DNA from: Candidatus Thorarchaeota archaeon SMTZ1-45
Lineage (GTDB): Archaea; Asgardarchaeota; Thorarchaeia; Thorarchaeales; Thorarchaeaceae
Length of the DNA stretch: 55,693 nt
Reading direction: 5' to 3'
NCBI GenBank assembly: GCA_001563335.1
Contig: LRSL01000031.1
Coordinates: forward strand, 1-55,693
The stretch's first letter is position 1. Each line of letters starts with the position of its first letter. Positions 3 to 24,632 of this stretch are shown here, in pieces. The translations under genes were made by a program, and so were the position numbers. Below the pieces are notes generated by a model. It was given only the letters and a program-made list of their open reading frames with translations. It was not told the DNA's origin and made no database searches.

Positions 3-3000
3 CATGATCCCAATGTCTACTTTGAAGGAGAATGGAAGTTCGGGCTCTGTGTTGAGGACACATGGGATTACACAAATTATCTCGATAGAGATGGACCTGG
101 TTATGTCTACTTTGATCTAACCCAAGAAGGCACTGTTAGTTATTCGACTTACTTTCAGTTTGATGTATATTCTGGCGAGTGGGATGAGATAGTGCCAGGT
201 GAATGGACAGAGGACTATTCTTCTACATGGACATTTTCAACAAGCAGTTATCTAGAAATGAATAGATGGTATCCTGCTAGTAGAATTCAAGGTGACGTGA
301 AGCATTTTGTTGAATATATTGTATATAATTTCGCTCCGGTAGCTAATCCTATTCTTGGAGATACAGTCTATGCAGGGGAGAGCATAGCTTTCGAAGGCTA
401 TGCTATTGACCCCGAGAGAGACAGCATTGGGTTGCAGTGGGATATGGACTATGGCTCATCTTTTACTATTGACGCTTGTTCTCAGAGTCCAGTCTTTGCA
501 TATACTACGCCTGGAACCTACACGGTGGCGTTTAGGGCTATTGATCTCTATGGAGCAACGAGTGAAATCCAGACAGCAACTGTTGTGGTACTTGCAGATA
601 TAGACACTGATGGTGATGGTATTAGCAACAGCATGGACGACGACGATGATAATGATGGCTTATTAGATGTTGATGAAGAGAGCCTTGGAACCGATCCATT
701 GAGTCCAGATACTGATAATGACGGTTTCAGCGACGCCGATGAGGTCTTGGTCTACTTCAGCAACCCACTCATGAAAGGACCAATCTATATTGATGAGAAT
801 GCTGACTTCAAGGCCTTTGGATTCGAGGGGGAGGGTACTCAACTGGAACCATTTATCATTGAGAATCTAGTTATAGAAACATCAACCATCAATCTAATTC
901 ATATTCAGGATACGACGGCCTACTTTGAGATTCGCAACTGCGAGCTCGATGGTCTTGGCGGAGAGTATTATGGGATTTATTTGCTCAATGTGCAGAATGC
1001 TAATGTAAGCTGGAACATAGTACAGAACTGCTATACTGGTTACATGCTCGAGAACACACACAACTCATCCCTTGAACATAATTGGGCGCACCACACAAGC
1101 TATGATTATCATTTAACGGCGAGCAAGGAAAACACGCTATCATGGAATCGTGGTACAACATGCTCCGTAGCATGCTACCTCTTGGATGCAGACAGCTCGA
1201 ATAACACTCTCAGTGATAACACAGCTGATCAGGGATTCTACTGCTATCATGTCGTAAGCTCCTCGAATAACACTTTCTTGAGGAACACCGCCACAGATAC
1301 AGACACCTGCTTCTTTATTGAATCATCATTCAATAATACTTTACGAGATAACACTCTTCTAGGGGGAATGTATGGATTTCGACTCGAAGATTGCAGGAAT
1401 CACACACTGTCAGGCAATACTATGTACTTCTCGACCTATGCGTACTACCTCAAAGACTCTGAATACAATACACTTGAAGCCAATGATGCTGAAGAAGCGG
1501 TCTATGGTTTCTACCTGCTTCGTAACTCTTTCAATGAGATCTCAGACAATATAGTCACTGGGTGTGAAAACGGCATAACATTGGAGAATTGCGAGTACAA
1601 CAGACTCTCAGGGAACACCATTAGCAATTGCTGGATTGGTATTGATCTCAACAATGTGGATGAATGTAACATTACAGGGAATCATGTTGAGGTGAATCAT
1701 GTTGGCATAGCCCTTGTAGAATCTAGAGATTCAACTTTGTTGGACAATGATGTCTTCTATTCTAGCTATGCTGGTTTTGTACTCACCATGTCTTCCGATT
1801 GTCTAGTTGAGTGGAATAATGCTTCTGGATGCTTAACTGGTTTCCAAATTGAAGTGAGCTCCTCCAACCTTTTATCTCACAACACAGTGATTATTGACTA
1901 TACTCAACATTTGGTTTTTTATAGGGGTTTTTGGTTGTTATGGTCAGACAAAAACACATTGTTTGATAACATCGTAATAGCAGATGTTGCCTCCACATGT
2001 TACAGTTTTTCATTGGAAAATAGCAATGAAAATACACTCACAAGGAATAATATCACTAGCAAAATCGATGTATATGTCTTAGAATACTCTCACTCATGCT
2101 ACGGTTTCAATGTTGACACTAGTCATGGCAATGATATCAGATATAACAACATCAGCATTAGTTTTCACTATTTCTCGGAACCCACCAGAGGTTATGCTTA
2201 TGGTGTATACTTGTTCTCATCACAGAACTGCACTATATCAAATAATGACATACGAATTCTCATGGCCGCTGGGAATGGAAATACAGAGGGATATGATATC
2301 TATCTTCTGAATTGTTGGAACACCACAATAGCATTCAACAATGTCACATCTGACCTCGGTAGTGGCATTGGTTTTGGAATATATCTTCACATCTCTTCTA
2401 ACACTATAATTCTAGATAACATATTACTTCAGAACGATAATGGTGTCTATCTAAGAGACTCATCATACAACTTAATCTATCACAATATGTTTTTGGACAA
2501 TCAACATGGAGCATTTCTATCAGGTACATGCATTAGCAACTATTGGCATCATCAAATTCTTTTAGAGGGCAATTTCTGGTCTGACTACCTTGGATTTGAT
2601 GATGGAAGTGGAACCGGCAAACACGCTTTAGCTGGTGACGGAATAGGAGATACTGAATTACCCGCAGCAGGACTTGATAATTACCCACTCATAGAGCCGT
2701 TGACTACTCTGACAACTGTGTATCAGGACGAGAATACTGAAGTCACGGTTGCATTTCATGACGTTTCCGAAACCGGCACCACTGAAGTCGTTGTGAGCGA
2801 TACTGGTCCTGATCCTGAACAAGGCTTTCGGCTAGTCGGTCAGTATTATGATATCACCAGCACAGTTAGTTGTTCTGGGACAATCACAATAGCAATTCCC
2901 TATGATGAAAGCGCCGTTGAAAATGAGGCACTCCTTCTGCTTGAACACTGGGATGAGGACCTTCAGCAATGGGTTGATGTGACCACTTGGGTTGACACTG

Positions 3001-6000
3001 AGAACAACATCATCTTCGGAGAAACAACAAGCCTCTCAAAGTTTGCCCTAATGGAGCTAACTCACATTTACATTGATGGTGATGACGACTTTAGAACGCA
3101 AGCGGCCAAGTATGGTTGGCCAGGGTCAGGCACCGACATCAGTCCATTCATCATCAATGGATTTGTCTTTTCTGATTCTGAATTCAATCTTATTCATGTT
3201 CAAGATACTACGGTATACTTTGAGATTCATAACTGCGAGCTCGATGGTCTAACTCAGGACTACTATGGGATGTATCTACTAAATGTTCAGAACGCCAAGG
3301 TGAGCGACAATGTGATAGAGAACTGCAAGGTCGGCATCTTTCTGCATGCAATCCAACATAGCATCATCGAGAGGAATTGGGTTCACAATTGTGTCACGGG
3401 TATCAACTTGAGAAGCACATCCAACCTACTGCTCTCCAACAATCAGGTGTACGACAACAGCGTATATGGGATTAATGTTCATTCTGTAGATAGTGCCATC
3501 TTTTCTGACAATACCATATCTGACAATGCGCAATTTGGGTTGTACATCTATAATTCCAATAGTCTACTGTTCTCAAAGAATCTCATAACAAGAAACGAAA
3601 AGTATGCCTTCTATCTAGATAGATCTATTGATATCCAGTTTTGTGAAAATACAGTTTCCCATAACTCTCGGATGGGAGTCTTCCTCGCAAGGTCTAATCA
3701 TACGCTTATCGCTGAGAACTCTATTCACGATAATCAAGAACATGGGATTCAGTTTTCAGTATCGTGCGATAATACAATCATTGGAAACACTATTTATAGC
3801 AATATAGCGTCTGGAATCTATCTGGGAGGTTCTTCTTCAAATATTCTCTCCCATAACACGATTTATGGCAACTCTGGGCGTGGAATTTGCCTCTATGGTG
3901 GCACCGGCAACATCCTTTCTGATAATGATGTTTATGATAACATGCAGATTGGCATATACATGGACAATTCCAAAAACACCACCTTCTCATATAACATGAT
4001 CCTCAATAACGGCCATTATGGCATTTTAATACAATCAGCTTGCAATAATACCTTCTCTTGGAATACCATCAGTGATAACGCCAACATCGGATTTTTCCTG
4101 TACGTTAGCTGTAAAAACAATACCATCTTTAGTAATACTGTCTATAATAACGCAGGCCTTGGTATCTACCTGTATAATGATAGCAGCAACAATACGATCT
4201 CGAGCAATACAATCAGCAATCAGCAAAACCATGTTGGGATTCAGCTCTCTGTTTCTAGCAATAATAACACACTGTTCAACAATACCATCTCTCAAAACTA
4301 CTGTGGCATCAGAGTCACCACAGGGAGTAATTACAATATCCTCATGGAAAACACCGTTACCGACAACCGCAATCTGGGTATCTCAATAGAGGACAGCTCG
4401 TTCAATCAGCTTACTGGCAACCAAGTGACAGGTTGTCCAACAGGATTTCTTCTGTATATAGGTCGGAACAACACTCTGTCTGGGAACACCTTCGAACTCC
4501 TTAACCATGATGCTAGTCTTAATCAGATCTTCGGGTTCAATCTATCCTGGTGCCCTAATACCACCCTGTCCGGAAACATTGTCAACATTCCCATCAGTGT
4601 TTCTGTAGTCGAGTCAATGGACGTTCACATAGCAGGTTTCTATCTGCAATGGTGTTCTAACGCAACTATAATAGCAAACATCATTGACATATCGGTGAGC
4701 TTCTTCGGCCAGGGCTCATCCAATCCCTATGGTTTCATTATGCTTGCGTGTTATGATTGCAAGTTAATCGGGAATAGTGTCACGCTAGGGTTCCAAGGTG
4801 ACGTGTTTGGTTACTACATGGGCATGCATCTAGAGTGGTCCCATCGTAACTCACTATCTGGAAACGAGATTAGCATTTCTGCTGTCAATCCTCCCGCGAA
4901 CTTTGAGGCGTTCTGTATACGAATGATCCAGTGTGAAGATAATATTCTGTCAGGAAACGCTGTTCTCTATGACGCCACTGGTCATGTTGTAGGGATCTAT
5001 CTTGGATGGAGTGACCATAACGAAGTATATGGCAACATGCTCACTGGGTGCGAAGATGGCATAGGACTGCTGAACTGCGAAGATAACATTGTATCTGGTA
5101 ATACTGTTGCAAGTTGCTTCGCATGTGGCATCAACCTTGTCGATTGTGCGAATATTGCCCTTCATGAAAACACAGTTATCGACTGTCACACCGGCATCGG
5201 GCTGTGGAACGGACACCACAACACTTTGTTTGGGAACTGGGTTGACGTGATTGATTATGACTTGGGCTTTGATGAAATAATTGGAGTCCTCCTTTCTGGG
5301 TGTCAAAATTGCATACTCACGATTAACTCTGTCACCTTCGGCATCGAACATGGGTCACCTTCAGCAACTTACTCCTTCGAGTCTGGATCTCTCGACGGAT
5401 TCGTATTGGACAATTGCGACAATGCCACGTTAACAACCAATAAGGTAAGACTCTGGGGGTCTGTCCTAGGGTCCCTCACTGGGTTTTCGTTGACTGCGTG
5501 TCAGAACCATACCTTATCAAGAAACAAAGTTGAGTTCATTAGAGGAATCACAGTTTATGGCGATGGGTTTTCGTTGTTAGACTGTCATAATAACACGTTA
5601 GTCTATAATGATATCACCTTCTCGGGCGTGAGCAACGACTTCACGTTTGATGGCAGTGGGTTTTCGTTATTGGGGTGTCATAATAACACCGTATCAGAAA
5701 ACGATGTTCTCTTCCGTAGAATCTATGGCTTTGCTGACGGGTTCTCGTTGGAGAGCTGTCACAATAACATGATAACAGACAATGAGATCTTCTTTCAGAA
5801 TAACTTCTTCGGCTCCGTCAGTGCATTTTCGTTGGAGGGCTGTTACAATAACACGCTAGTAGGCAACGAGGTCATCACCAATGGTTTTAGGATATCTAGC
5901 GTCTTTGACGGATTTTCATTATCGGGTTGCCACAATAATACAATCATAGGCAATGGTATCCTCTTTTGCTGGGAAAGAAGTCTGGGCTCAGTCCAACACG

Positions 6001-7862
6001 GTTTTCACAGCGGGTTTTCATTTTCGAGCTGTCACAATAACACGTTAATAAACAACATTGTCCAGTTCTATTATTTAGCTAGTGGGGTTATGGTTTCTGG
6101 TGATGGGTTTTTGTTGTCGGGGTGTCAGAATAATGTGTTATTAGACAATCTTTACTTATTCCAAACCAGTGCACATGATGGAGTCACAGTTTCTGTTGAT
6201 GGATTTTTGTTGTCGGGGTGTCAGAATAACATGCTAACAGGAAATCTGGCTTCCATTAACCTTGAAATTCAGGGCGGTGTCTTCAACGGTGCTGGATACC
6301 ACTTATTCGAGTGCCAGAGCAATACCTTGTTGAACAACTCAGTAGACCTTCAAGGCATCATCGATAATGGCGTCTTTAACGGATTTTGTTTGGAATATTC
6401 CAGTGTTAATTCCTTGACTAATAATACAGCCACCAATAATTATCATGGGTTTTATTTGACGCGTTCCAGTGCTAATACCTTGATTAACAATACAGCCACC
6501 AGTAATGCTATAGGATTCTGTTTGCTTTATTGTGTGCATACAATAATTGATGGACTTGAGGGAGCAAGCAAGATTGAGGGAGGTAATGGTGAATTAGCAG
6601 GAGTCATGCTCTACGATTGCAGTGATGTTACGATTCGGGATTATTGGATCAGGGGCTTTGAAACTGGAATAGAGGTTCATAGTTGTACTGGCGGCACAAT
6701 TAGTGTTAACCACATGATAGATAATAGCATTGCGGTTTCTCTAGCCAGGACAACACAGATGACGATAGTAAGAAACATATTCAGTGAGAACGACATAGGC
6801 CTTCAAGCTGACTTTTCATCTATTGACAACAACATCTACCTCAATCTCTTCATGAGTAATGGCCAGCAGGTTTGTGATACTGGTAGTAACACATGGCACT
6901 TCATTGATACGGAATCTGGTCAGCTCTTGGGCAACTTCTGGAACAACTACTTGGGTTTAGCTGATGGAAGTGGCGGAAGAGTTGAGGGAGATGGCATTGG
7001 AGACACCAATCTCCCACATGAGGAAGGGGATGATTTTCCGCTAATAGACCCATCAATTGCTATGAAGTATGGACCATTACCGATTGGAAACGACTGGTGG
7101 CAAGCAGGGGGTTATCTCATTTGGCGAGGTGGATGGTCTCTAGTGGAGATTAAAGTCACTGACCCTCTTGGCCATGCCATCAACAGCACCACGAACGAGA
7201 TTGGACTGAACGCATGGTACTTCGAAGAAATCCAAGCAGATGGCACAACTAACGTACTCGTCATGATTGTTGTCCCAGTCCCTCTGAACCCCTATCCTCA
7301 GGAAGTCTTCACGTTTGAGATGACTGCTCTGGATGACCTCACCTACTCCATGGAGTGGTTTGTGAGCTATGGGGACTCTGTCAGTGGGATTGGTGGCGAG
7401 GTTCTCTTTATACGAACGGTTGAAGATGCTCCGCTCACAGCTGGTCAGACGCGACTAGTTGAAACGGAACTTGAAATGACCCCTGAGGGCGTGGAGGTTT
7501 CAGCTGTTGCACAGTACGACTTTGGAGGATTTCTCCGCCCCATCAAGCCAGACGGGACCAGTTGGTTCAAACAGGGGATGTCAATCCCTGTGAAGTTCCA
7601 GCTCTTTGACGAGGATGGTAATCCAGATAGCACTGCACATGCGACCCTTGACCTGGCCATGGTGATTGACGGGGTGGTAGGTGACTTCATGCCTGCTGAC
7701 TCGACATCACCCGTTGACACTTCCAACGTGTTTAGGTATGACGAGAAGAAGGAGCAGTATGTCTTCAATCTCAACACTATGGACCTGGCTGCTGGAATCT
7801 ATGTCCTACGGATAACGCTTGATGATGGGCAGCAGTTCACAATCCAGATTGAGATCAGATAG
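3..7862 (+). CDS. Giant extracellular parallel beta-helix (NosD/CASH-like) repeat protein with PKD-like domain, TSP3-like Ca-binding repeats and C-terminal PxKF-like domain; 5'-partial
   Basis: The frame is open from base 3 (HDPNVYFEGEW...) through the ORF-track start at 192, so the true start is outside the window. It contains a PKD-like segment (WDMDYG...AYTTPGTYTV), DTDGDG/DDDNDG/DTDNDG repeats, dozens of 'GIYL..S.NNT...N' coils, two GNFW.DY...DGIGDT caps and a C-terminal GFLRPI...IPVKFQL motif. Confidence 0.85.
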   Translation, partial: HDPNVYFEGEWKFGLCVEDTWDYTNYLDRDGPGYVYFDLTQEGTVSYSTYFQFDVYSGEWDEIVPGEWTEDYSSTWTFSTSSYLEMNRWYPASRIQGDVKHFVEYIVYNFAPVANPILGDTVYAGESIAFEGYAIDPERDSIGLQWDMDYGSSFTIDACSQSPVFAYTTPGTYTVAFRAIDLYGATSEIQTATVVVLADIDTDGDGISNSMDDDDDNDGLLDVDEESLGTDPLSPDTDNDGFSDADEVLVYFSNPLMKGPIYIDENADFKAFGFEGEGTQLEPFIIENLVIETSTINLIHIQDTTAYFEIRNCELDGLGGEYYGIYLLNVQNANVSWNIVQNCYTGYMLENTHNSSLEHNWAHHTSYDYHLTASKENTLSWNRGTTCSVACYLLDADSSNNTLSDNTADQGFYCYHVVSSSNNTFLRNTATDTDTCFFIESSFNNTLRDNTLLGGMYGFRLEDCRNHTLSGNTMYFSTYAYYLKDSEYNTLEANDAEEAVYGFYLLRNSFNEISDNIVTGCENGITLENCEYNRLSGNTISNCWIGIDLNNVDECNITGNHVEVNHVGIALVESRDSTLLDNDVFYSSYAGFVLTMSSDCLVEWNNASGCLTGFQIEVSSSNLLSHNTVIIDYTQHLVFYRGFWLLWSDKNTLFDNIVIADVASTCYSFSLENSNENTLTRNNITSKIDVYVLEYSHSCYGFNVDTSHGNDIRYNNISISFHYFSEPTRGYAYGVYLFSSQNCTISNNDIRILMAAGNGNTEGYDIYLLNCWNTTIAFNNVTSDLGSGIGFGIYLHISSNTIILDNILLQNDNGVYLRDSSYNLIYHNMFLDNQHGAFLSGTCISNYWHHQILLEGNFWSDYLGFDDGSGTGKHALAGDGIGDTELPAAGLDNYPLIEPLTTLTTVYQDENTEVTVAFHDVSETGTTEVVVSDTGPDPEQGFRLVGQYYDITSTVSCSGTITIAIPYDESAVENEALLLLEHWDEDLQQWVDVTTWVDTENNIIFGETTSLSKFALMELTHIYIDGDDDFRTQAAKYGWPGSGTDISPFIINGFVFSDSEFNLIHVQDTTVYFEIHNCELDGLTQDYYGMYLLNVQNAKVSDNVIENCKVGIFLHAIQHSIIERNWVHNCVTGINLRSTSNLLLSNNQVYDNSVYGINVHSVDSAIFSDNTISDNAQFGLYIYNSNSLLFSKNLITRNEKYAFYLDRSIDIQFCENTVSHNSRMGVFLARSNHTLIAENSIHDNQEHGIQFSVSCDNTIIGNTIYSNIASGIYLGGSSSNILSHNTIYGNSGRGICLYGGTGNILSDNDVYDNMQIGIYMDNSKNTTFSYNMILNNGHYGILIQSACNNTFSWNTISDNANIGFFLYVSCKNNTIFSNTVYNNAGLGIYLYNDSSNNTISSNTISNQQNHVGIQLSVSSNNNTLFNNTISQNYCGIRVTTGSNYNILMENTVTDNRNLGISIEDSSFNQLTGNQVTGCPTGFLLYIGRNNTLSGNTFELLNHDASLNQIFGFNLSWCPNTTLSGNIVNIPISVSVVESMDVHIAGFYLQWCSNATIIANIIDISVSFFGQGSSNPYGFIMLACYDCKLIGNSVTLGFQGDVFGYYMGMHLEWSHRNSLSGNEISISAVNPPANFEAFCIRMIQCEDNILSGNAVLYDATGHVVGIYLGWSDHNEVYGNMLTGCEDGIGLLNCEDNIVSGNTVASCFACGINLVDCANIALHENTVIDCHTGIGLWNGHHNTLFGNWVDVIDYDLGFDEIIGVLLSGCQNCILTINSVTFGIEHGSPSATYSFESGSLDGFVLDNCDNATLTTNKVRLWGSVLGSLTGFSLTACQNHTLSRNKVEFIRGITVYGDGFSLLDCHNNTLVYNDITFSGVSNDFTFDGSGFSLLGCHNNTVSENDVLFRRIYGFADGFSLESCHNNMITDNEIFFQNNFFGSVSAFSLEGCYNNTLVGNEVITNGFRISSVFDGFSLSGCHNNTIIGNGILFCWERSLGSVQHGFHSGFSFSSCHNNTLINNIVQFYYLASGVMVSGDGFLLSGCQNNVLLDNLYLFQTSAHDGVTVSVDGFLLSGCQNNMLTGNLASINLEIQGGVFNGAGYHLFECQSNTLLNNSVDLQGIIDNGVFNGFCLEYSSVNSLTNNTATNNYHGFYLTRSSANTLINNTATSNAIGFCLLYCVHTIIDGLEGASKIEGGNGELAGVMLYDCSDVTIRDYWIRGFETGIEVHSCTGGTISVNHMIDNSIAVSLARTTQMTIVRNIFSENDIGLQADFSSIDNNIYLNLFMSNGQQVCDTGSNTWHFIDTESGQLLGNFWNNYLGLADGSGGRVEGDGIGDTNLPHEEGDDFPLIDPSIAMKYGPLPIGNDWWQAGGYLIWRGGWSLVEIKVTDPLGHAINSTTNEIGLNAWYFEEIQADGTTNVLVMIVVPVPLNPYPQEVFTFEMTALDDLTYSMEWFVSYGDSVSGIGGEVLFIRTVEDAPLTAGQTRLVETELEMTPEGVEVSAVAQYDFGGFLRPIKPDGTSWFKQGMSIPVKFQLFDEDGNPDSTAHATLDLAMVIDGVVGDFMPADSTSPVDTSNVFRYDEKKEQYVFNLNTMDLAAGIYVLRITLDDGQQFTIQIEIR

Positions 7863-19313: not shown

Positions 19314-19521
19314 TTATATGTAAGATAATTACGTAATATATTTTTCGGTTCTTTATTATGTTACCAAAAGATATATTACTTGTAATGTGTAATACTATTT
19401 CAGGTGTTAAAGTGATTCAATTGCGTGATGATGACTTCAACTTGGCAAATGTTGGTTTGCATCGATTTACTGACATTGACTTCATCACTGAATCCTTACA
19501 CTAATACGGAGGAGATAGAGA

Positions 19522-20040
19522 ATGTTTAACAAAAGAACCCACAGGGTTGTATTTGCTGTAGGAGTCCTGCTCGTCCTGTCATTGGCTGCATTCGGTTCGA
19601 TGATTGCAGTGGCTTGGATGAGTATGAATAATACAATGGTAATGACTTCAGATGCATATTCCATTGAGAATAGCGCTGTTGAAACCAGTGCGGCTTTAGC
19701 TTGGCGGATTGATCCCAATACCGTGAGGATCCTTGACTACCGAGTTGATCCTAACACCGTGAAGATCCTTGACTTCCGAGTTGATCCTAACACCGTGAGG
19801 ATCCTTGACTACCGAGTTGATCCTAACACCGTGAGAATCCTTGACTTCAAAGACACTGCTAGAGTGGCAGACTTCAAGCTTGATCCTAGTGATGAAAGAA
19901 CAATTGACTTCAAAGAAACATCTGCAGGGGTTCATTTTCGAATTGATCCCAATACTGTAAGGATCCTTGACCACAAAGAGGAATTTAGAGCTTTATGCCC
20001 TGGTGGCGCCCACTATGCTTTCGACTACGTTCTATATTAG
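19522..20040 (+). CDS. Exported or membrane-anchored tandem-repeat protein (candidate multi-copy peptide precursor)
   Basis: GGAGGAG RBS at 19508-19514. N-terminal basic plus hydrophobic signal. Five near-identical R(I/V)DPNTV(R/K)ILD(Y/F/H) units plus degenerate units. Confidence 0.75.
   Translation: MFNKRTHRVVFAVGVLLVLSLAAFGSMIAVAWMSMNNTMVMTSDAYSIENSAVETSAALAWRIDPNTVRILDYRVDPNTVKILDFRVDPNTVRILDYRVDPNTVRILDFKDTARVADFKLDPSDERTIDFKETSAGVHFRIDPNTVRILDHKEEFRALCPGGAHYAFDYVLY
19705..19974 (+). repeat. 36-bp coding tandem repeat (4 contiguous copies, 1 degenerate, 1 dispersed)
   Basis: Units at 19705, 19741, 19777 and 19813 (consensus CGAGTTGATCCTAACACCGTGAGGATCCTTGACTAC), a degenerate unit at 19876 and a further copy at 19939-19974. 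Confidence 0.95.
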
Positions 20041-20135: not shown

Positions 20136-20465
20136 TTATTTTTCTTGAAATGCTTCAAAAGCATGCTTCTTAGCAGAATCGCGTAATTTCCGGATATCAG
20201 TTGCTTGGCTTTTTATCTCCTCAAAGAGGTCAATACGTGCAGATATAGCTTGTTCGACAAATGCAGATACAGCTTCAGACCTACTCTTAAAAATCTCAAG
20301 TTCGACTAAAGCATCTAAGATTTCGACAATATCGCCACTCATCCTAGTCATGACTGAAACTTCACGCTTCTTGGAAACAAGCTCTTCGTCAGATAGACGT
20401 CCAAGAAGCTGTTCGCGTAGGCTTAATTGTACACCCTCTGTTTTCGATGATTTCTCTTCTGCCAT
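20136..20465 (-). CDS. Ribbon-helix-helix (CopG/Arc/MetJ-like) regulator
   Basis: VSVMTRMSGDIVEILDALVELEIFKSRSEAVSAFV RHH pattern; GGTGA RBS before the ATG at 20465. Confidence 0.75.
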   Translation of the reverse strand: MAEEKSSKTEGVQLSLREQLLGRLSDEELVSKKREVSVMTRMSGDIVEILDALVELEIFKSRSEAVSAFVEQAISARIDLFEEIKSQATDIRKLRDSAKKHAFEAFQEK

Positions 20466-20481
20466 CTCTTTCACCTTATTT

Positions 20482-20541
20482 ATTTCATGTAATTATATGA
20501 TACAGACGCTTATATCTGTTTTTCATGTAATAGTATTACAT
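20482..20541. promoter_or_regulatory. Operator-like repeats and palindromes between the RHH gene and the hydrogenase operon
   Basis: TTTCATGTAAT at 20483 and 20521; perfect palindrome ATGTAATA-g-TATTACAT (20525-20541); near-palindrome TCATGTAATTATATGA. Confidence 0.5.
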
Positions 20542-20674: not shown

Positions 20675-21715
20675 GTGTCAAGATTGCGCATATTGAAAAT
20701 GCAGCCAAAGTTTCTCGAGGTTTTCCTCGAGAGTCTGGACAAGTTTGGCCAGTTATATGGACCAAAACAAAAGAATGGAGTGTTGTCATATGACCGTCTT
20801 GAGAGCATATCCGAATTGGTCATCACTGACGAGCACCCTATGATTCCAATCAAGAAGTTATTTCATCCGATGCAGTTCACTATGATGCATTTCAATGAGA
20901 GAGGCTTCGAACCAGACTATTCTGTAATCGAGAAACGGGTCATATTAGGAGTTCATCCATGTGAGATACATAGTCTTCTAAGGCTAGACGATGTATTCCT
21001 CAGAAACCCAGTTGATCCATATTACTCAGGTCTGAGAAAGAATTCAGCAATAATTGGATTCTCGTGTCTTCCGACTGAGAACTCTCTTTGTTTCTCAACA
21101 GACACTGATATTGTTGAAGAGGGGTTTGATCTATTCTTTGTGAATCTGGGCGAGTTCTATCTTGTCTGGGTAGGGTCAAGCCTTGGCTATGACATGATAT
21201 ACCAGCGAGAGGAGTTCTTCGACGAAGATGTTACGCATGAAGATATCCAGATGTATATCGACTGGCGTCAGAAACGAAACAAGATGTTCAAGAAGAGCTT
21301 CGAATTCGACAGCATGCCAGACATTATGGAACTGAGTCACGATAGCGAAGTCTGGGACTATTTTGGGGACAAATGTCTTTCATGTGGTCAATGCTCTATG
21401 GTCTGCCCGACTTGTAATTGTTATAATGTTACAGATGTCTTTGATGTCACTAATGAAACAGTTGGGCGTCGTGACAGAGTATGGGATAGCTGCATGTTTG
21501 TTGATTATAGTCTCGTTGCTGGGGGACACAATTTTCGTGCATCCCGTGCAGACCGGCTAAGATTGTGGTATGGTCACAAGTTGAAGACTTTTGGAGTTGA
21601 TTATGGTCGTCCGGGATGTATTGGTTGCGGACGATGTGTTGACTCATGTCCAGTGGATATCAATGTCCTAACAATCTCAGAGGCTTTGACAACCAAGGAG
21701 GTGCCTAAACAATGA
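20675..21715 (+). CDS. hydB: Group 3b [NiFe] sulfhydrogenase beta subunit (Fe-S)
   Basis: GVHPCE, CLSCGQCSMVCPTCNC, RVWDSC and GCIGCGRCVDSCP. Confidence 0.9.
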   Translation: MSRLRILKMQPKFLEVFLESLDKFGQLYGPKQKNGVLSYDRLESISELVITDEHPMIPIKKLFHPMQFTMMHFNERGFEPDYSVIEKRVILGVHPCEIHSLLRLDDVFLRNPVDPYYSGLRKNSAIIGFSCLPTENSLCFSTDTDIVEEGFDLFFVNLGEFYLVWVGSSLGYDMIYQREEFFDEDVTHEDIQMYIDWRQKRNKMFKKSFEFDSMPDIMELSHDSEVWDYFGDKCLSCGQCSMVCPTCNCYNVTDVFDVTNETVGRRDRVWDSCMFVDYSLVAGGHNFRASRADRLRLWYGHKLKTFGVDYGRPGCIGCGRCVDSCPVDINVLTISEALTTKEVPKQ

Positions 21716-22560
21716 TTGTGAATGAGCAAATAGATAATCCATTCAAACCTAAGGCAGCTAGAATTGTGAGACATTATGATTTGATTAAGGACCACAGATT
21801 CTTCCAGATTAGACATATCGACATGAAGAAAGCCATGTCATTCACCTATAATCCGGGACAATTCATCATGGTATCAATACCCGGTGTAGGAGAAGCACCT
21901 TTTTCGATTTCATCTACGCCAAGTAGACCTGGTATTCTTGAACTAGGCATTAGAAAGGTTGGTAAACTGACTGAAGCATTGTTCAAGAAAAAGGACAACG
22001 ACGTAATCTACATTCGAGGACCTTATGGAAATGGCTTCAAACTAGACCAGATGGTCAATAAAGACCTCATAATAGTTGCTGGTGGATTAGGAGTAATACC
22101 TCTTCGGTCTATACTCTATTATGTTTTAGATAATAGAGACCAATTCAATCGAGTATTCTTTCTATATGGTACAAGGAGTCCTCAAGATTTTCTATTCAAA
22201 ACCGAGTTCTTTCAAATCAAAAAACGAGATGACATTGAATGCATGTACAGTGTTGATAGACCGGACAAGGACTGGACTGAAAATGTAGGTGTTGTGACTA
22301 AGTTATTCAAAGAGCTTCCAAAGATTGATCCAAAGGAAACTAATGCGGTTGTAGTTGGTCCACCTGTTATGTACAAATTTGTGATTGATGAGTTTCTAAA
22401 GCTTAAGATACCAAAGAACCAGATTCAGCTTTCTCTAGAGAGACGAATGAAATGCGGAATAGGCAAGTGTGGACATTGTGCTATTGAACATCTCTATACT
22501 TGTATGGATGGACCAGTGTTCACCTACTGGGACACGTTACACTTTAGGGAGTTGATCTAA
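21712..22560 (+). CDS. hydG: Sulfhydrogenase gamma subunit (FAD/NAD(P)-binding, [2Fe-2S])
   Basis: PGQF...GEAPFSIS, RGPYGNGF, AGGLG and SLERRMKCGIGKCGHC...CMDGPVF. Confidence 0.92.
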   Translation: MIVNEQIDNPFKPKAARIVRHYDLIKDHRFFQIRHIDMKKAMSFTYNPGQFIMVSIPGVGEAPFSISSTPSRPGILELGIRKVGKLTEALFKKKDNDVIYIRGPYGNGFKLDQMVNKDLIIVAGGLGVIPLRSILYYVLDNRDQFNRVFFLYGTRSPQDFLFKTEFFQIKKRDDIECMYSVDRPDKDWTENVGVVTKLFKELPKIDPKETNAVVVGPPVMYKFVIDEFLKLKIPKNQIQLSLERRMKCGIGKCGHCAIEHLYTCMDGPVFTYWDTLHFRELI

Positions 22561-22561
22561 G

Positions 22562-23338
22562 ATGACCACAACAGACAAACCAAAGGTTGGCATCTATGGC
22601 TTTACTGGCTGTGCAGGTGATCAGCTCCTAATCATTCATACTGAGGATGAAATCCTCAACCTATTTGGTGCTACTAACATCCAATCCTTTGTAATGGCCT
22701 CAAGTAATCCAATTGAAGGCGACCTTGATGTTGCCTTTATTGAAGGAAGCGTGAGCACAGAAGAAGAGAAAGAACATCTTCAAGAGATCAGAAAACGGTC
22801 TAAGATTTTGGTTGCAATCGGCAATTGTGCAGTCAATGGTGGCCCTCAAGCTATGTATACTGACGACGGAGGATACGAGAAGAGACTGTACAAAGTATAT
22901 GGCGAAGGTGTCAAGTTTGTATCTAAGCCCCTAGAAGCCAAGCCCATTGATACCTATGTTGAGGTGGACTATTACCTTCCGGGATGTCCAATAAGTCAAC
23001 CTCAGACATTTGCGTTAATTTCACGATTGATTCATGGAACAATACCTGAACCATATCCTCACCCCGTATGTCATGAGTGCAAGCTCAATGAGAACCATTG
23101 CTTGCTTCTTGATGAGAAGTTCTGTATTGGACCCATCACATTGGGAGGATGCGGATCAGCTTGTCCCAATCATGGGCTCCCTTGTGTGGGTTGCTGGGGA
23201 CCTAATGAGGACGGTAACTTCGCTCAGCATCTCAAGCTTCTTGAAAGCTTTGGACTAACCAAGGAAGAGATCATTCGACGTATCAGAGGGTTCGGGGGTT
23301 CAAAGATTATCAAATTCATTGAAAATGGAGGTAAATAG
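22562..23338 (+). CDS. hydD: Sulfhydrogenase delta ([NiFe] small) subunit
   Basis: IEGSV, AIGNCAVNGG, LPGCP, VCHEC and CIGPITLGGCGSACP...CVGCWG. Confidence 0.9.
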   Translation: MTTTDKPKVGIYGFTGCAGDQLLIIHTEDEILNLFGATNIQSFVMASSNPIEGDLDVAFIEGSVSTEEEKEHLQEIRKRSKILVAIGNCAVNGGPQAMYTDDGGYEKRLYKVYGEGVKFVSKPLEAKPIDTYVEVDYYLPGCPISQPQTFALISRLIHGTIPEPYPHPVCHECKLNENHCLLLDEKFCIGPITLGGCGSACPNHGLPCVGCWGPNEDGNFAQHLKLLESFGLTKEEIIRRIRGFGGSKIIKFIENGGK

Positions 23339-23339
23339 A

Positions 23340-24632
23340 ATGGCAAACAAGAGGAGTATCACTATCGAACCCCTAGCTAGAGTTGAAGGTCATGGAGGAA
23401 TAAAGGTCGAGATAAAGGACAATAAAGTAGACAATGTTGAGGTTCGTATCTTAGAGGGCCCACGTCTATTCGAGGAGTTAGTGCTAGGCAAAACACCTCA
23501 GGAGGACCTCAGTATCGTGCCTAGAATCTGTGCGATTTGTAACTTATCCCACAAGTATGCAGCACTCAGAGGGCTTGAGAAGGCAGTTGGTGTAAAGGTC
23601 GATTCTACAACTCATCTCTACAGAGAACTAATGCATCATGGAGAGATGATTGAAAGTCATAGTCTGCATATCTACTTTCTAGCATTACCGGATTTCCTTG
23701 GCTACGATAATGCTGTTGCAATGGCTGACAAGTATGGTGACACTGTGGCAAAAGCTCTGCAACTCAAAAAATTTGGGAACAAGATAATGCGGATGATGGG
23801 AGGGCGGATGATTCATGGTGAGAATCCAGTTATTGGGGGATTCAGCAGGCTTCCCTCAAAGGAAAATCTCACTAAGGTGAAAGAAGAAGCTATTGAACTA
23901 CTTGACTTTGCTTTAGCGACCATAGACTTGCTTGGGAATCTCGAAGTTCCGGATCATATGGAACGGGACACCCAGTTCCTTTGCTGTAAACCTCCAAGTG
24001 AGGAGTATGGATATCACGGTGACATCCTTATGACCTCTGATGGTGAGGAACATCCTGTTGAGAACTACAAGAACGTCATTAAGGAACGGGTTGTCAGTCA
24101 CAGTTTTGCGAAACGAAGTCAGTATAACGAGAAACCATTTACAGTAGGAGCACTTGCACGTGTCCTTTTGCTAGGAGAACGTCTAAAGGGAAAGGCCAAG
24201 CAATCGTATGATAAACTGATTACTGATCGGTGGTATCGTAATCCTCTATTCAACAATCATGCACAAGCTATTGAGCAGGTCTATTCGCTTGAAGGCATCA
24301 TCGATACTGTAAATCAGCTTCTCATCAGCGAAGATGCAAGGATTGCACAGCCAACACAGAAAACTGGTGTCGGTACAGGAGCTGTAGAAGCGCCTCGCGG
24401 GACCTTGATTCATCACTATGAGGTGAAGGAGGGGGTAATCGTAGCTGCAGACTTCATTACTCCGACAGCTATGTTTCTTGATGATATTGAAGCATTCATA
24501 CGAACTGGTGGTGATCATCTTCTCGCTATGAATCAGCTTGATAATATTGAACTCCAATTTGAGATGATAGCCAGAGCTTATGATCCATGTATTAGCTGCA
24601 GTGCTCATCTTGTTGAAGTTGTATACAAGTAG
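23340..24632 (+). CDS. hydA: Sulfhydrogenase alpha ([NiFe] large) subunit
   Basis: ARVEGH, L1 motif RICAIC, EAPRGTLIH, and L2 motif DPCISCSAH with a short cleavable C-terminal tail; GGAGGT RBS before 23340. Confidence 0.95.
   Translation: MANKRSITIEPLARVEGHGGIKVEIKDNKVDNVEVRILEGPRLFEELVLGKTPQEDLSIVPRICAICNLSHKYAALRGLEKAVGVKVDSTTHLYRELMHHGEMIESHSLHIYFLALPDFLGYDNAVAMADKYGDTVAKALQLKKFGNKIMRMMGGRMIHGENPVIGGFSRLPSKENLTKVKEEAIELLDFALATIDLLGNLEVPDHMERDTQFLCCKPPSEEYGYHGDILMTSDGEEHPVENYKNVIKERVVSHSFAKRSQYNEKPFTVGALARVLLLGERLKGKAKQSYDKLITDRWYRNPLFNNHAQAIEQVYSLEGIIDTVNQLLISEDARIAQPTQKTGVGTGAVEAPRGTLIHHYEVKEGVIVAADFITPTAMFLDDIEAFIRTGGDHLLAMNQLDNIELQFEMIARAYDPCISCSAHLVEVVYK

Follow-up and report, generated by a model that had tools for sequence, protein, structure and literature searches.

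What might a small archaeal protein do whose export-type N-terminus is followed by an array of short tandem repeats? This question is raised by the open reading frame (ORF) at 19522..20040 of a 55,693-nucleotide stretch of contig LRSL01000031.1 from Candidatus Thorarchaeota archaeon SMTZ1-45; the whole stretch is referred to as the window and the ORF product as the window protein. An initial annotation had read the ORF as an exported precursor of several peptides, reminiscent of pheromone or prohormone precursors or of peptides made by ribosomes and then modified post-translationally (RiPPs), with an uncleaved surface fibre as the alternative. The gene, its family, its locus, the turnover of its repeat units, selection on these units, the lack of a predicted fold and a palindrome shared with the adjacent gene are established. 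The answer that we favour, albeit tentatively, is a Sec-inserted, N-terminally tethered carrier that may display fast-evolving short peptide modules on the cell surface.

According to this proposal, the Sec pathway would insert the small protein with its N-terminus inside the cell, and a conserved hydrophobic helix of 24 residues would be retained in the membrane and anchor the protein. On the outer side, an acidic linker would be followed by an array of linear peptide modules of 9-17 amino acids (aa), and these modules, rather than a folded domain, would be the working parts. Within a lineage they would be kept by selection, and between lineages they would be multiplied, lost and replaced by tandem duplication, resulting in a multivalent, fast-evolving surface ligand for adhesion or for recognition of partners, matrix or viruses. 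Transcription would be tightly controlled via a palindromic operator common to the adjacent gene, which encodes a 112-aa probable DNA-binding protein. What is conserved in the family is the architecture, i.e. an export/anchor segment, an acidic linker and one to many modules, together with the regulation, and neither a fold nor a peptide sequence.

A nearly genus-specific gene with changing tails

The ORF and the unit layout described by the initial annotation proved exact to the letter over all 172 codons. W61 followed by R62 marks the start of the array, in which four 12-mers (residues 62-109) are succeeded by a 9-mer (110-118), a divergent 12-mer (119-130), a second 9-mer (131-139), a dispersed 12-mer (140-151), the tetrapeptide KEEF (152-155) and a 17-residue tail. 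All ten unit boundaries consist of W, Y, F or H followed by R or K. On the DNA level, Tandem Repeats Finder reports a period of 36 nt with 3.8 copies, 93% matches and a score of 241 at 19709-19846; hence, the array greatly exceeds what chance would produce. The dispersed copy (codons 140-151) was said to deviate mostly at synonymous positions, and indeed four of the six codons that distinguish it from copy 86-97 differ synonymously and two non-synonymously. S34, M35, N36, N37, A60 and W61 are invariant in the family alignment A1, and the 17-residue C-terminal end RALCPGGAHYAFDYVLY is common to only the three closest relatives (P0001-P0004).

For the window protein, no Pfam or NCBIfam match passed the curated cut-offs, with no RTX, curli or Fap repeat family among the Pfam matches at an expectation value (E) up to 10, a profile search of PDB sequences gave a best E of only 0.25, and the ESM Atlas returned no usable match, its structure rows resting on a model with a predicted local distance difference test score (pLDDT) of 0.43. 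Eleven homologous proteins were found in a collection of 5.8 billion sequences, and a profile search among 1.84 billion yielded 23 representatives at E up to 0.001, of which 21 share the N-terminus. The remaining two, an Ig-like/SLH wall protein and a WD40 protein, were discarded as false positives; they are long unrelated beta-repeat proteins matched solely via many weak repeat stretches. The genome itself holds one copy. With the single protein as query, the gene was detected in 15 of 24 genomes of the same genus and in none of 16 outside it; the family profile A2 finds it in 20 of 27 genus genomes. In other genera of the class, 2 of 59 genomes gave a match, namely a strong one of 42 residues where a contig ends and another with E 0.0035. 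The unnamed family is almost confined to one genus of Thorarchaeota, and with same-genus relatives that are Candidatus Thorarchaeota, the earlier guess of a probable Asgard archaeon was right.

Several genes that seem to be missing or split are explained by contigs breaking at the repeats. The array breaks assemblies: one orthologous gene is split over two contigs (G042; L021, L038), another carries a run of N inside the array (G004; L006) and a third lies at a contig end (G011; L048). Copy numbers in metagenome-assembled genomes are therefore lower bounds. For the window itself, flanks and unit sequences were recovered in Logan contigs of four public runs; every contig breaks inside 19720-19840 and none crosses the array, so that the count of four tandem copies rests on the assembly. 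Word depths summed higher inside the array, but such depths are not copy numbers. A near-identical protein of 160 aa on another contig (P0002) has one 12-mer less, which may reflect a strain difference or an assembly collapse.

Across the genus, the first ~38 residues alone can be aligned. In comparison with the window, identity amounts to 29-92% for these residues, 8-41% for the tails and 71-89% for the protein of the adjacent 112-aa gene; hence, the whole gene is fast-evolving and the tail is effectively unalignable between groups. Three unit types occur, RLDPxTVRxxDY/KDAVxxIDF, YIGPGENPxxxGFLLD and RGPIEIxPxY, each of which has been multiplied independently to 1 to 13 copies. Subfamily 1, which includes the window protein, combines 12-mers of the form [RK]-L-D-P-x-x-V-R-x-[IL]-D-[YF] (0-7 copies) with 9-mers of the form [KR]-D-A-V-x-x-I-D-F (0-13 copies) in various mixtures, from six consecutive 12-mers (P0014) or thirteen consecutive 9-mers (G043) to strict alternation (P0005, P0007), and one of its clades (P0011/G004) has a derived 10-aa unit, DRLxFExAV. 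In subfamily 2, proteins of ~105-156 aa end in 1-3 copies of YIGPGENPxxxGFLLD(S), some with other internal duplications, and subfamily 3 has 2-4 RGPIEI(V/M)PxYxP-like units with an end ...RGPIx(L/I)(L/T)P(F/V/I) at the stop codon. In the MAFFT alignment, the YIGPGE of subfamily 2 falls on the RLDPGE/T of subfamily 1, which hints at a common origin of these units. The expectation of a varying copy number with a conserved core holds insofar as the number differs among relatives and the unit is kept within a lineage. Overall, the tail ranges from ~50 to ~230 residues, and a 52-aa library member has a short tail only.

Two side observations concern these tails. The motif A-x-A-W occurs twice in the window protein, as AVAW (residues 29-32, 19606-19617) at the end of the hydrophobic segment and as ALAW (residues 58-61, 19693-19704) ahead of the first unit, and A-[LIV]-A-[WSF] precedes the first unit in most members of subfamily 1. 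In one orthologue (G018; L011/L029, C74:8830-9166), a TGA directly follows the hydrophobic segment and the sequence continues in another frame, representing either a pseudogene or a sequencing error.

Within five genes, paralogous units were compared by the ratio of non-synonymous to synonymous differences (pN/pS), which amounts to 0.34-0.49 at pS 0.45-0.80. The ratio is 0.37-0.49 when only positions not used to find the units are counted, and 0.34 for the 9-mers of G043 taken purely by position without a motif filter. This excess of synonymous change agrees with the claim that selection acts on the peptide. Furthermore, the D, P, V, I/L and D positions of the unit are held across species while the rest drifts. 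The tail is thus clearly not junk.

Export-type N-terminus and predicted structure

The window protein starts with MFNKRTHR, including the positive residues K4, R5 and R8, continues with 24 hydrophobic residues (V9-W32) in which A29-V30-A31 directly precede W32, and then passes into an acidic flank. As described in a published account (PMC6098224), a Sec-type N-terminus is tripartite, with positive residues, an H domain that is hydrophobic and a site of processing, and the window protein, as read from its sequence, has all three parts, with A29-V30-A31 as a putative processing site, in keeping with the export signal that had been proposed for it. In the hydrophobic segment, F24-G25 shows little or no variation, and all three subfamilies retain a Gxxx[GA] spacing. 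In subfamily 3, Tyr aligns with position -3 of the putative A-x-A site of cleavage, which makes a conserved signal-peptidase site unlikely there. A long hydrophobic segment with these features would be no less in accord with a retained anchor than with a signal peptide that is cleaved. Class III signal peptides, as found in type IV pilin-like proteins, have a [KR]-[GAS] motif for cleavage immediately ahead of the hydrophobic segment. No such pilin-like motif is seen here: the window protein reads ...T-H-R followed by V-V-F and subfamily 2 ...S-A-R followed by L-G-F, and no G, A or S stands before the hydrophobic stretch in subfamily 1.

Structure prediction yields a helix and little else. With an 11-row alignment, AlphaFold2 models residues 4-42 of the window protein as a helix (pLDDT 69-83), and residues 37-172 remain below 50; the mean pLDDT is 43.5. 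For the G013 orthologue, submitted as a single sequence, a helix at 4-31 is followed by a tail below 50. Over the two orthologues, the hydrophobic helix reaches pLDDT 69-92. Hence, no confident fold emerged for the repeat region of either protein; such a fold would, according to the initial annotation, have refuted its proposal. In the model of the window protein, short strands appear with low confidence on each ...LD(Y/F)(R/K) junction, and in 12-mer arrays a beta-type amphipathic moment exceeds that of shuffled sequences (z = 2.0, 2.9, 5.9 and 1.5). The 9-mer-only array (z 0.4) and subfamilies 2 and 3 (z -1.6 to 0.9) show no such periodicity, and since it is confined to the 12-mer arrays, no single fold is common to the family. 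Units of 12 and 9 residues that follow each other in any order, together with this patchy periodicity, therefore disfavour one conserved solenoid fold and favour short linear modules.

The locus, the adjacent gene and a shared palindrome

In 17 of the 19 loci with enough flank, the repeat gene lies tail-to-tail with the 112-aa gene, its sole constant neighbour (Table 1). The repeat gene is usually located downstream of PAS, YdjM-like and sometimes Nudix genes, and NiFe-hydrogenase genes come after the 112-aa gene. At E up to 5, Pfam offers nothing for the 112-aa protein but a sub-threshold SYY_C match. In NCBIfam, it weakly matches the C-terminal part of the transcription factor AbmR (E 8.1e-5, short of the cut-off), and the ESM Atlas offers, as leads only, Mb1296_C and ribbon-helix-helix clusters. 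Judged from its sequence, it is probably a DNA-binding protein; a ribbon-helix-helix label was not adopted, as weak leads alone suggest it and Pfam does not confirm it.

Table 1. Features of the repeat gene, its upstream region and the adjacent gene in the window
Feature	Position	Strand	Remarks
Palindrome ATTACGTAAT in the promoter region	19328..19337	+	TTACGTAA at 19329-19336; conserved in the 18-locus upstream alignment
TATA-like ATATATTA, then TTACTTGTAA (TTAC..GTAA block) and TGTAATACTATT	19371..19399	+	Best-conserved block of alignment A4
Conserved leader of ~120 nt ending in Shine-Dalgarno-like GGAGGAGATAGAGA (19508-19521)	19400..19521	+	
Coding sequence of the repeat protein	19522..20040 (incl. 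stop codon)	+	172 aa
Residues 1-32, putative signal peptide or signal anchor	19522..19617	+	Positive n-region and hydrophobic segment
Residues 33-61, juxtamembrane MSMNNT, then polar, acidic linker to A-L-A-W	19618..19704	+	
Residues 62-109, four tandem 12-aa units R(I/V)DPNTV(R/K)ILD(Y/F)	19705..19848	+	
Residues 110-155, mixed units KDTARVADF, KLDPSDERTIDF, KETSAGVHF, RIDPNTVRILDH, KEEF	19849..19986	+	
17-residue C-terminus RALCPGGAHYAFDYVLY	19987..20037	+	P0001-P0004
112-aa constant neighbour, probable small DNA-binding protein	20136..20474	-	17/19 loci, 71-89% identity
Perfect palindrome TGTAATAGTATTACA	20526..20540	.	52 nt upstream of the 112-aa gene start, in the region divergently shared with the hydrogenase genes

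The 200 nt upstream of the repeat gene are more conserved than its coding tail, and promoter, leader and Shine-Dalgarno (SD) sequence are conserved in 18 of 18 loci. The block at 19371-19399 is likely to comprise the promoter plus an operator, with TGTAATACTATT as one half of the palindrome TGTAATAsTATTACA. With the consensus (T/C)GTAATA(C/G)TATTAC(A/G), this palindrome occurs upstream of both the repeat gene and the 112-aa gene, and a copy with at most two mismatches was present beside the 112-aa gene in all 30 loci from two genera (L056-L084, L048), compared to a chance expectation, by our own arithmetic, of less than 0.01 matches per 3.3-kb locus. The exact palindrome 12-mer occurs five times in the 3.5-Mb genome, and three of these occurrences are full palindromes, including some in the promoters of unrelated genes on two other contigs. 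Because it also marks unrelated promoters, the palindrome points to a small regulon instead of a private two-gene switch, and it is likely the operator of that regulon. The full palindromes elsewhere lie before a 526-aa gene (contig C46) and between a peroxiredoxin-like gene and a 113-aa gene (C76).

The linkage of the two genes extends to a second genus. In genus g25, four of nine fetched loci around the 112-aa orthologue (64-67% identity) carry a divergent gene of 87-89 aa with a TTG start (L076-L079, ~650-920, minus strand), whose product has a KR-rich N-terminus, a hydrophobic segment and RVPKEIH/RRVPIEIHED units. This gene keeps the GTAATACTATTAC promoter block and the AGAGGAGAGTAGG SD, and the family protein profile misses it (~4 bits). 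It is a positional homologue in which the regulatory DNA has outlasted the protein sequence. Consequently, the two-gene linkage has survived an inversion and near-complete protein divergence.

Within the leader, a GGAGGAG block (19508-19514) ends 7 nt before the ATG, and an SD is present in all 18 orthologous loci. No Rfam match was obtained for the leader RNA, RNAalifold placed 0 pairs and a column-pair scan returned only two 4-bp stacks; with neither a known family nor a consensus structure, a structured leader RNA was rejected for now. An ORF of 48 aa in the leader (19358-19504, plus strand) is probably not coding, as Pfam finds no family for it and its region, though conserved on the DNA level, contains indels.

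When the 27 ORFs around the gene (~7989 to 32368) were scanned with Pfam, methyltransferases, PAS and Nudix proteins, CitMHS transporters, NiFe-hydrogenase subunits, an alpha/beta hydrolase and an M24 peptidase were identified, among others. A four-gene cluster on the plus strand (20675-24629), which lies divergent from the 112-aa gene, encodes 4Fe-4S, FAD/NAD-binding, NiFe small-subunit-like and NiFe large-subunit domains and corresponds to a soluble hydrogenase-type operon. A very long plus-strand ORF of ~2,556 aa (192-7859) is found at the start of the window.

Modules possibly displayed or released, and partly similar known systems

A tethered display protein, tentative as it is, would be in line with the anchor-like helix, the selected yet unfolded modules and the conserved regulatory DNA; to the observations it would add that the protein is exported in this topology, keeps its anchor, is displayed on the surface, acts as a ligand and is regulated by the neighbour. 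Several points weigh against it. The protein is small and has no C-terminal anchor, and the final unit of subfamilies 2 and 3 runs up to the stop codon, as is seen more typically in pro-peptides than in surface proteins. Released peptides, too, are marked by a conserved leader that precedes a hypervariable secreted part. Subfamilies 1 and 2 keep the small-x-small motif with a G/S helix breaker at -7/-6, and cleavage after A29-V30-A31 may be an alternative to anchoring. Finally, a pN/pS of 0.3-0.5 indicates only moderate constraint, and the unit pairs behind it are not independent and may have undergone gene conversion.

The rival that fares best is a multi-copy precursor of secreted peptides, possible although rather unlikely. 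In such a precursor, a cleaved Sec signal and an acidic pro-region would precede the units, and extracellular or membrane proteases would cut at the unit boundaries and free signal or antimicrobial peptides of 9-17 aa, the unit types of the lineages being pherotypes. A small protein with a signal-like N-terminus and A-V-A before W32 suits this scenario, as do units that abut directly and, in subfamilies 2 and 3, run up to the stop codon, the independent amplification of different units behind one leader, more synonymous than non-synonymous change and the lack of a predicted fold. The strong conserved SD and operator and the adjacent small, probably co-regulated DNA-binding protein recall regulator-propeptide cassettes.

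The unit junctions speak for both sides. An aromatic residue or His followed by a basic residue is found at 99 of the 136 unit ends in 23 subfamily-1 proteins. The earlier claim of conserved junctions does not extend to the whole family, as the aromatic-basic junction is absent in several individual members (P0004, P0011, P0016, P0018, P0019, P0021, G004) and in subfamilies 2 and 3. In its place, P0004 has V/A/I, P0016 and P0021 have S, the P0011/G004 clade has D followed directly by R, and subfamily 2 has D-Y or R-W. Steadier features of the junction are the basic residue and the preceding Asp. None of the ten boundaries in the window protein is a dibasic (KR/RR) site of the KEX2 type, each having a single R or K, so that in this respect the proposed likeness to KEX2-processed proteins does not hold.

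Further evidence against a precursor comes from the surroundings of the gene. No RiPP maturase, C39-ABC exporter, dedicated protease, receptor kinase or secretion accessory gene was found by Pfam within ~10 kb (27 ORFs) or in conserved synteny. As no gene for a modifying enzyme, a dedicated protease or a transporter is thus co-located, a RiPP interpretation fails on a defining feature. The 112-aa neighbour is conserved at 71-89% while the peptide changes completely; hence, it does not co-vary like a cognate receptor. The 24-residue hydrophobic segment with its packing-type motifs is anchor-like, and the Tyr at the aligned -3 position of subfamily 3 is at odds with cleavage. Lastly, the literature listings searched showed no ribosomal peptide signal in Archaea, and they contained nothing on this repeat-protein family. 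In its fullest form, the precursor scenario would make the locus the first ribosomal multi-copy secreted peptide-signal system in Archaea, with peptides of 9-17 aa, lineage pherotypes arising by tandem birth and death, and a regulator-propeptide cassette with a shared operator, analogous to peptide-pheromone loci of bacteria and eukaryotes. We consider this distinctly unlikely.

An improbable third option is a membrane micro-protein whose transmembrane helix would be the functional part, for example as the partner of another membrane protein, with a weakly constrained, slippage-prone tail. The exclusive alignability of the N-terminal 38 residues across the genus, the invariant F24-G25, the retained Gxxx[GA] spacing, the wide range of tail lengths, the short-tailed 52-aa member and the G018 frameshift right after the helix are consistent with it, although this frameshift may be a sequencing error. 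However, in each of the 18 intact orthologues examined the tail is an open frame of 50-230 codons, the units show a pN/pS of 0.34-0.49, and their D, P, V, I/L and D positions are kept across species.

Quite improbable is the uncleaved structural repeat that had been offered as the alternative to a precursor, in which the units would stack as a beta-solenoid, a beta-meander or an amyloid-like surface fibre. The beta-type moment of the 12-mer arrays, the low-confidence strands on the junctions and the turn-like DPxT motif argue in its favour, and the only non-family profile matches, discounted above, were beta-repeat proteins. On the other hand, the tail stays below pLDDT 50 in both AlphaFold2 models, the periodicity is missing from the 9-mer-only array and from subfamilies 2 and 3, and no Pfam repeat family is matched. 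A constant coil length is broken by the mixed order of units (12-12-12-12-9-12-9-12 in the window protein, all-12 in P0014, all-9 in G043), and the copy number varies from 1 to 13. That the gene is not real, but an ORF that arose by chance on tandemly repeated DNA or through faulty assembly, is highly improbable: the array does break short-read contigs and its copy number does rest on the assembly, yet 20 of 27 genus genomes have the ORF, its start and its SD conserved at a single locus, divergence is biased towards synonymous change in exactly this frame, and flanks and units were recovered in contigs of four runs.

To our knowledge, hardly anything is known of what Asgard archaea expose at, or release from, the cell surface, although ideas on the origin of eukaryotes centre on cell-cell contact with partners. 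The repeat family provides a concrete candidate, as it is probably tightly regulated and exported, lineage-specific and subject to a turnover of modules that is faster than change in the rest of the locus. If the modules are displayed, as we favour, they would mark rapid surface diversification driven by partners, viruses or kin recognition within one genus of Thorarchaeota; if they are released, the protein would be the first ribosomal peptide-signal precursor, and thus the first peptide pheromone-like system, in Archaea. In addition, the shared palindrome offers a small, testable regulon.

Several known systems, set against the family here by description, resemble it in part. Multi-core RiPP precursors such as the cyanobactin PatE-like proteins have repeated cores with recurring flanking residues as well, whereas their maturation genes have no counterpart among the 27 neighbouring ORFs. 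RiPP leaders are normally cytoplasmic and are not Sec signals. The secreted fibre subunits curli CsgA and Fap and the RTX nonapeptide beta-rolls share with the family a Sec-type N-terminus ahead of short imperfect repeats, as well as, with some members, a 9-residue period and Asp-rich units. Unlike these proteins, the family has no GGxGxD motif, no Q/N/G-rich units, no Pfam match and no confident fold, and accessory secretion or nucleator genes were not found among the neighbouring ORFs.

Similar in organization are the pro-peptides of the Gram-positive RRNPP systems (Phr, PapR, NprX). Like the repeat gene, they encode a small Sec-type precursor with the motif at the extreme C-terminus, as in subfamilies 2 and 3, next to a small regulator-like gene, and here one palindrome is found at both promoters. 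In contrast to RRNPP regulators, the 112-aa neighbour has no TPR or other Pfam domain and does not co-vary with the peptide, and the palindrome also occurs at other promoters of the genome. Multi-domain plant prepropeptides of the CLE/CEP type and fungal ones of the alpha-factor/KEX2 type differ from the family in that its host is an archaeon, its boundaries have a single basic residue in place of dibasic KR/RR, its hydrophobic segment is long enough for a permanent anchor and it lacks similarity to any Pfam family. With both types, the family has in common an export signal, a variable pro-region and a motif of 9-17 aa that stands once or in up to many tandem copies at the C-terminus or close to it, and a leader that is kept while copy number and motif change between lineages. 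Small exported tandem-repeat proteins are already known as a general kind, to which the Thorarchaeota genes add an unnamed, nearly genus-specific family.

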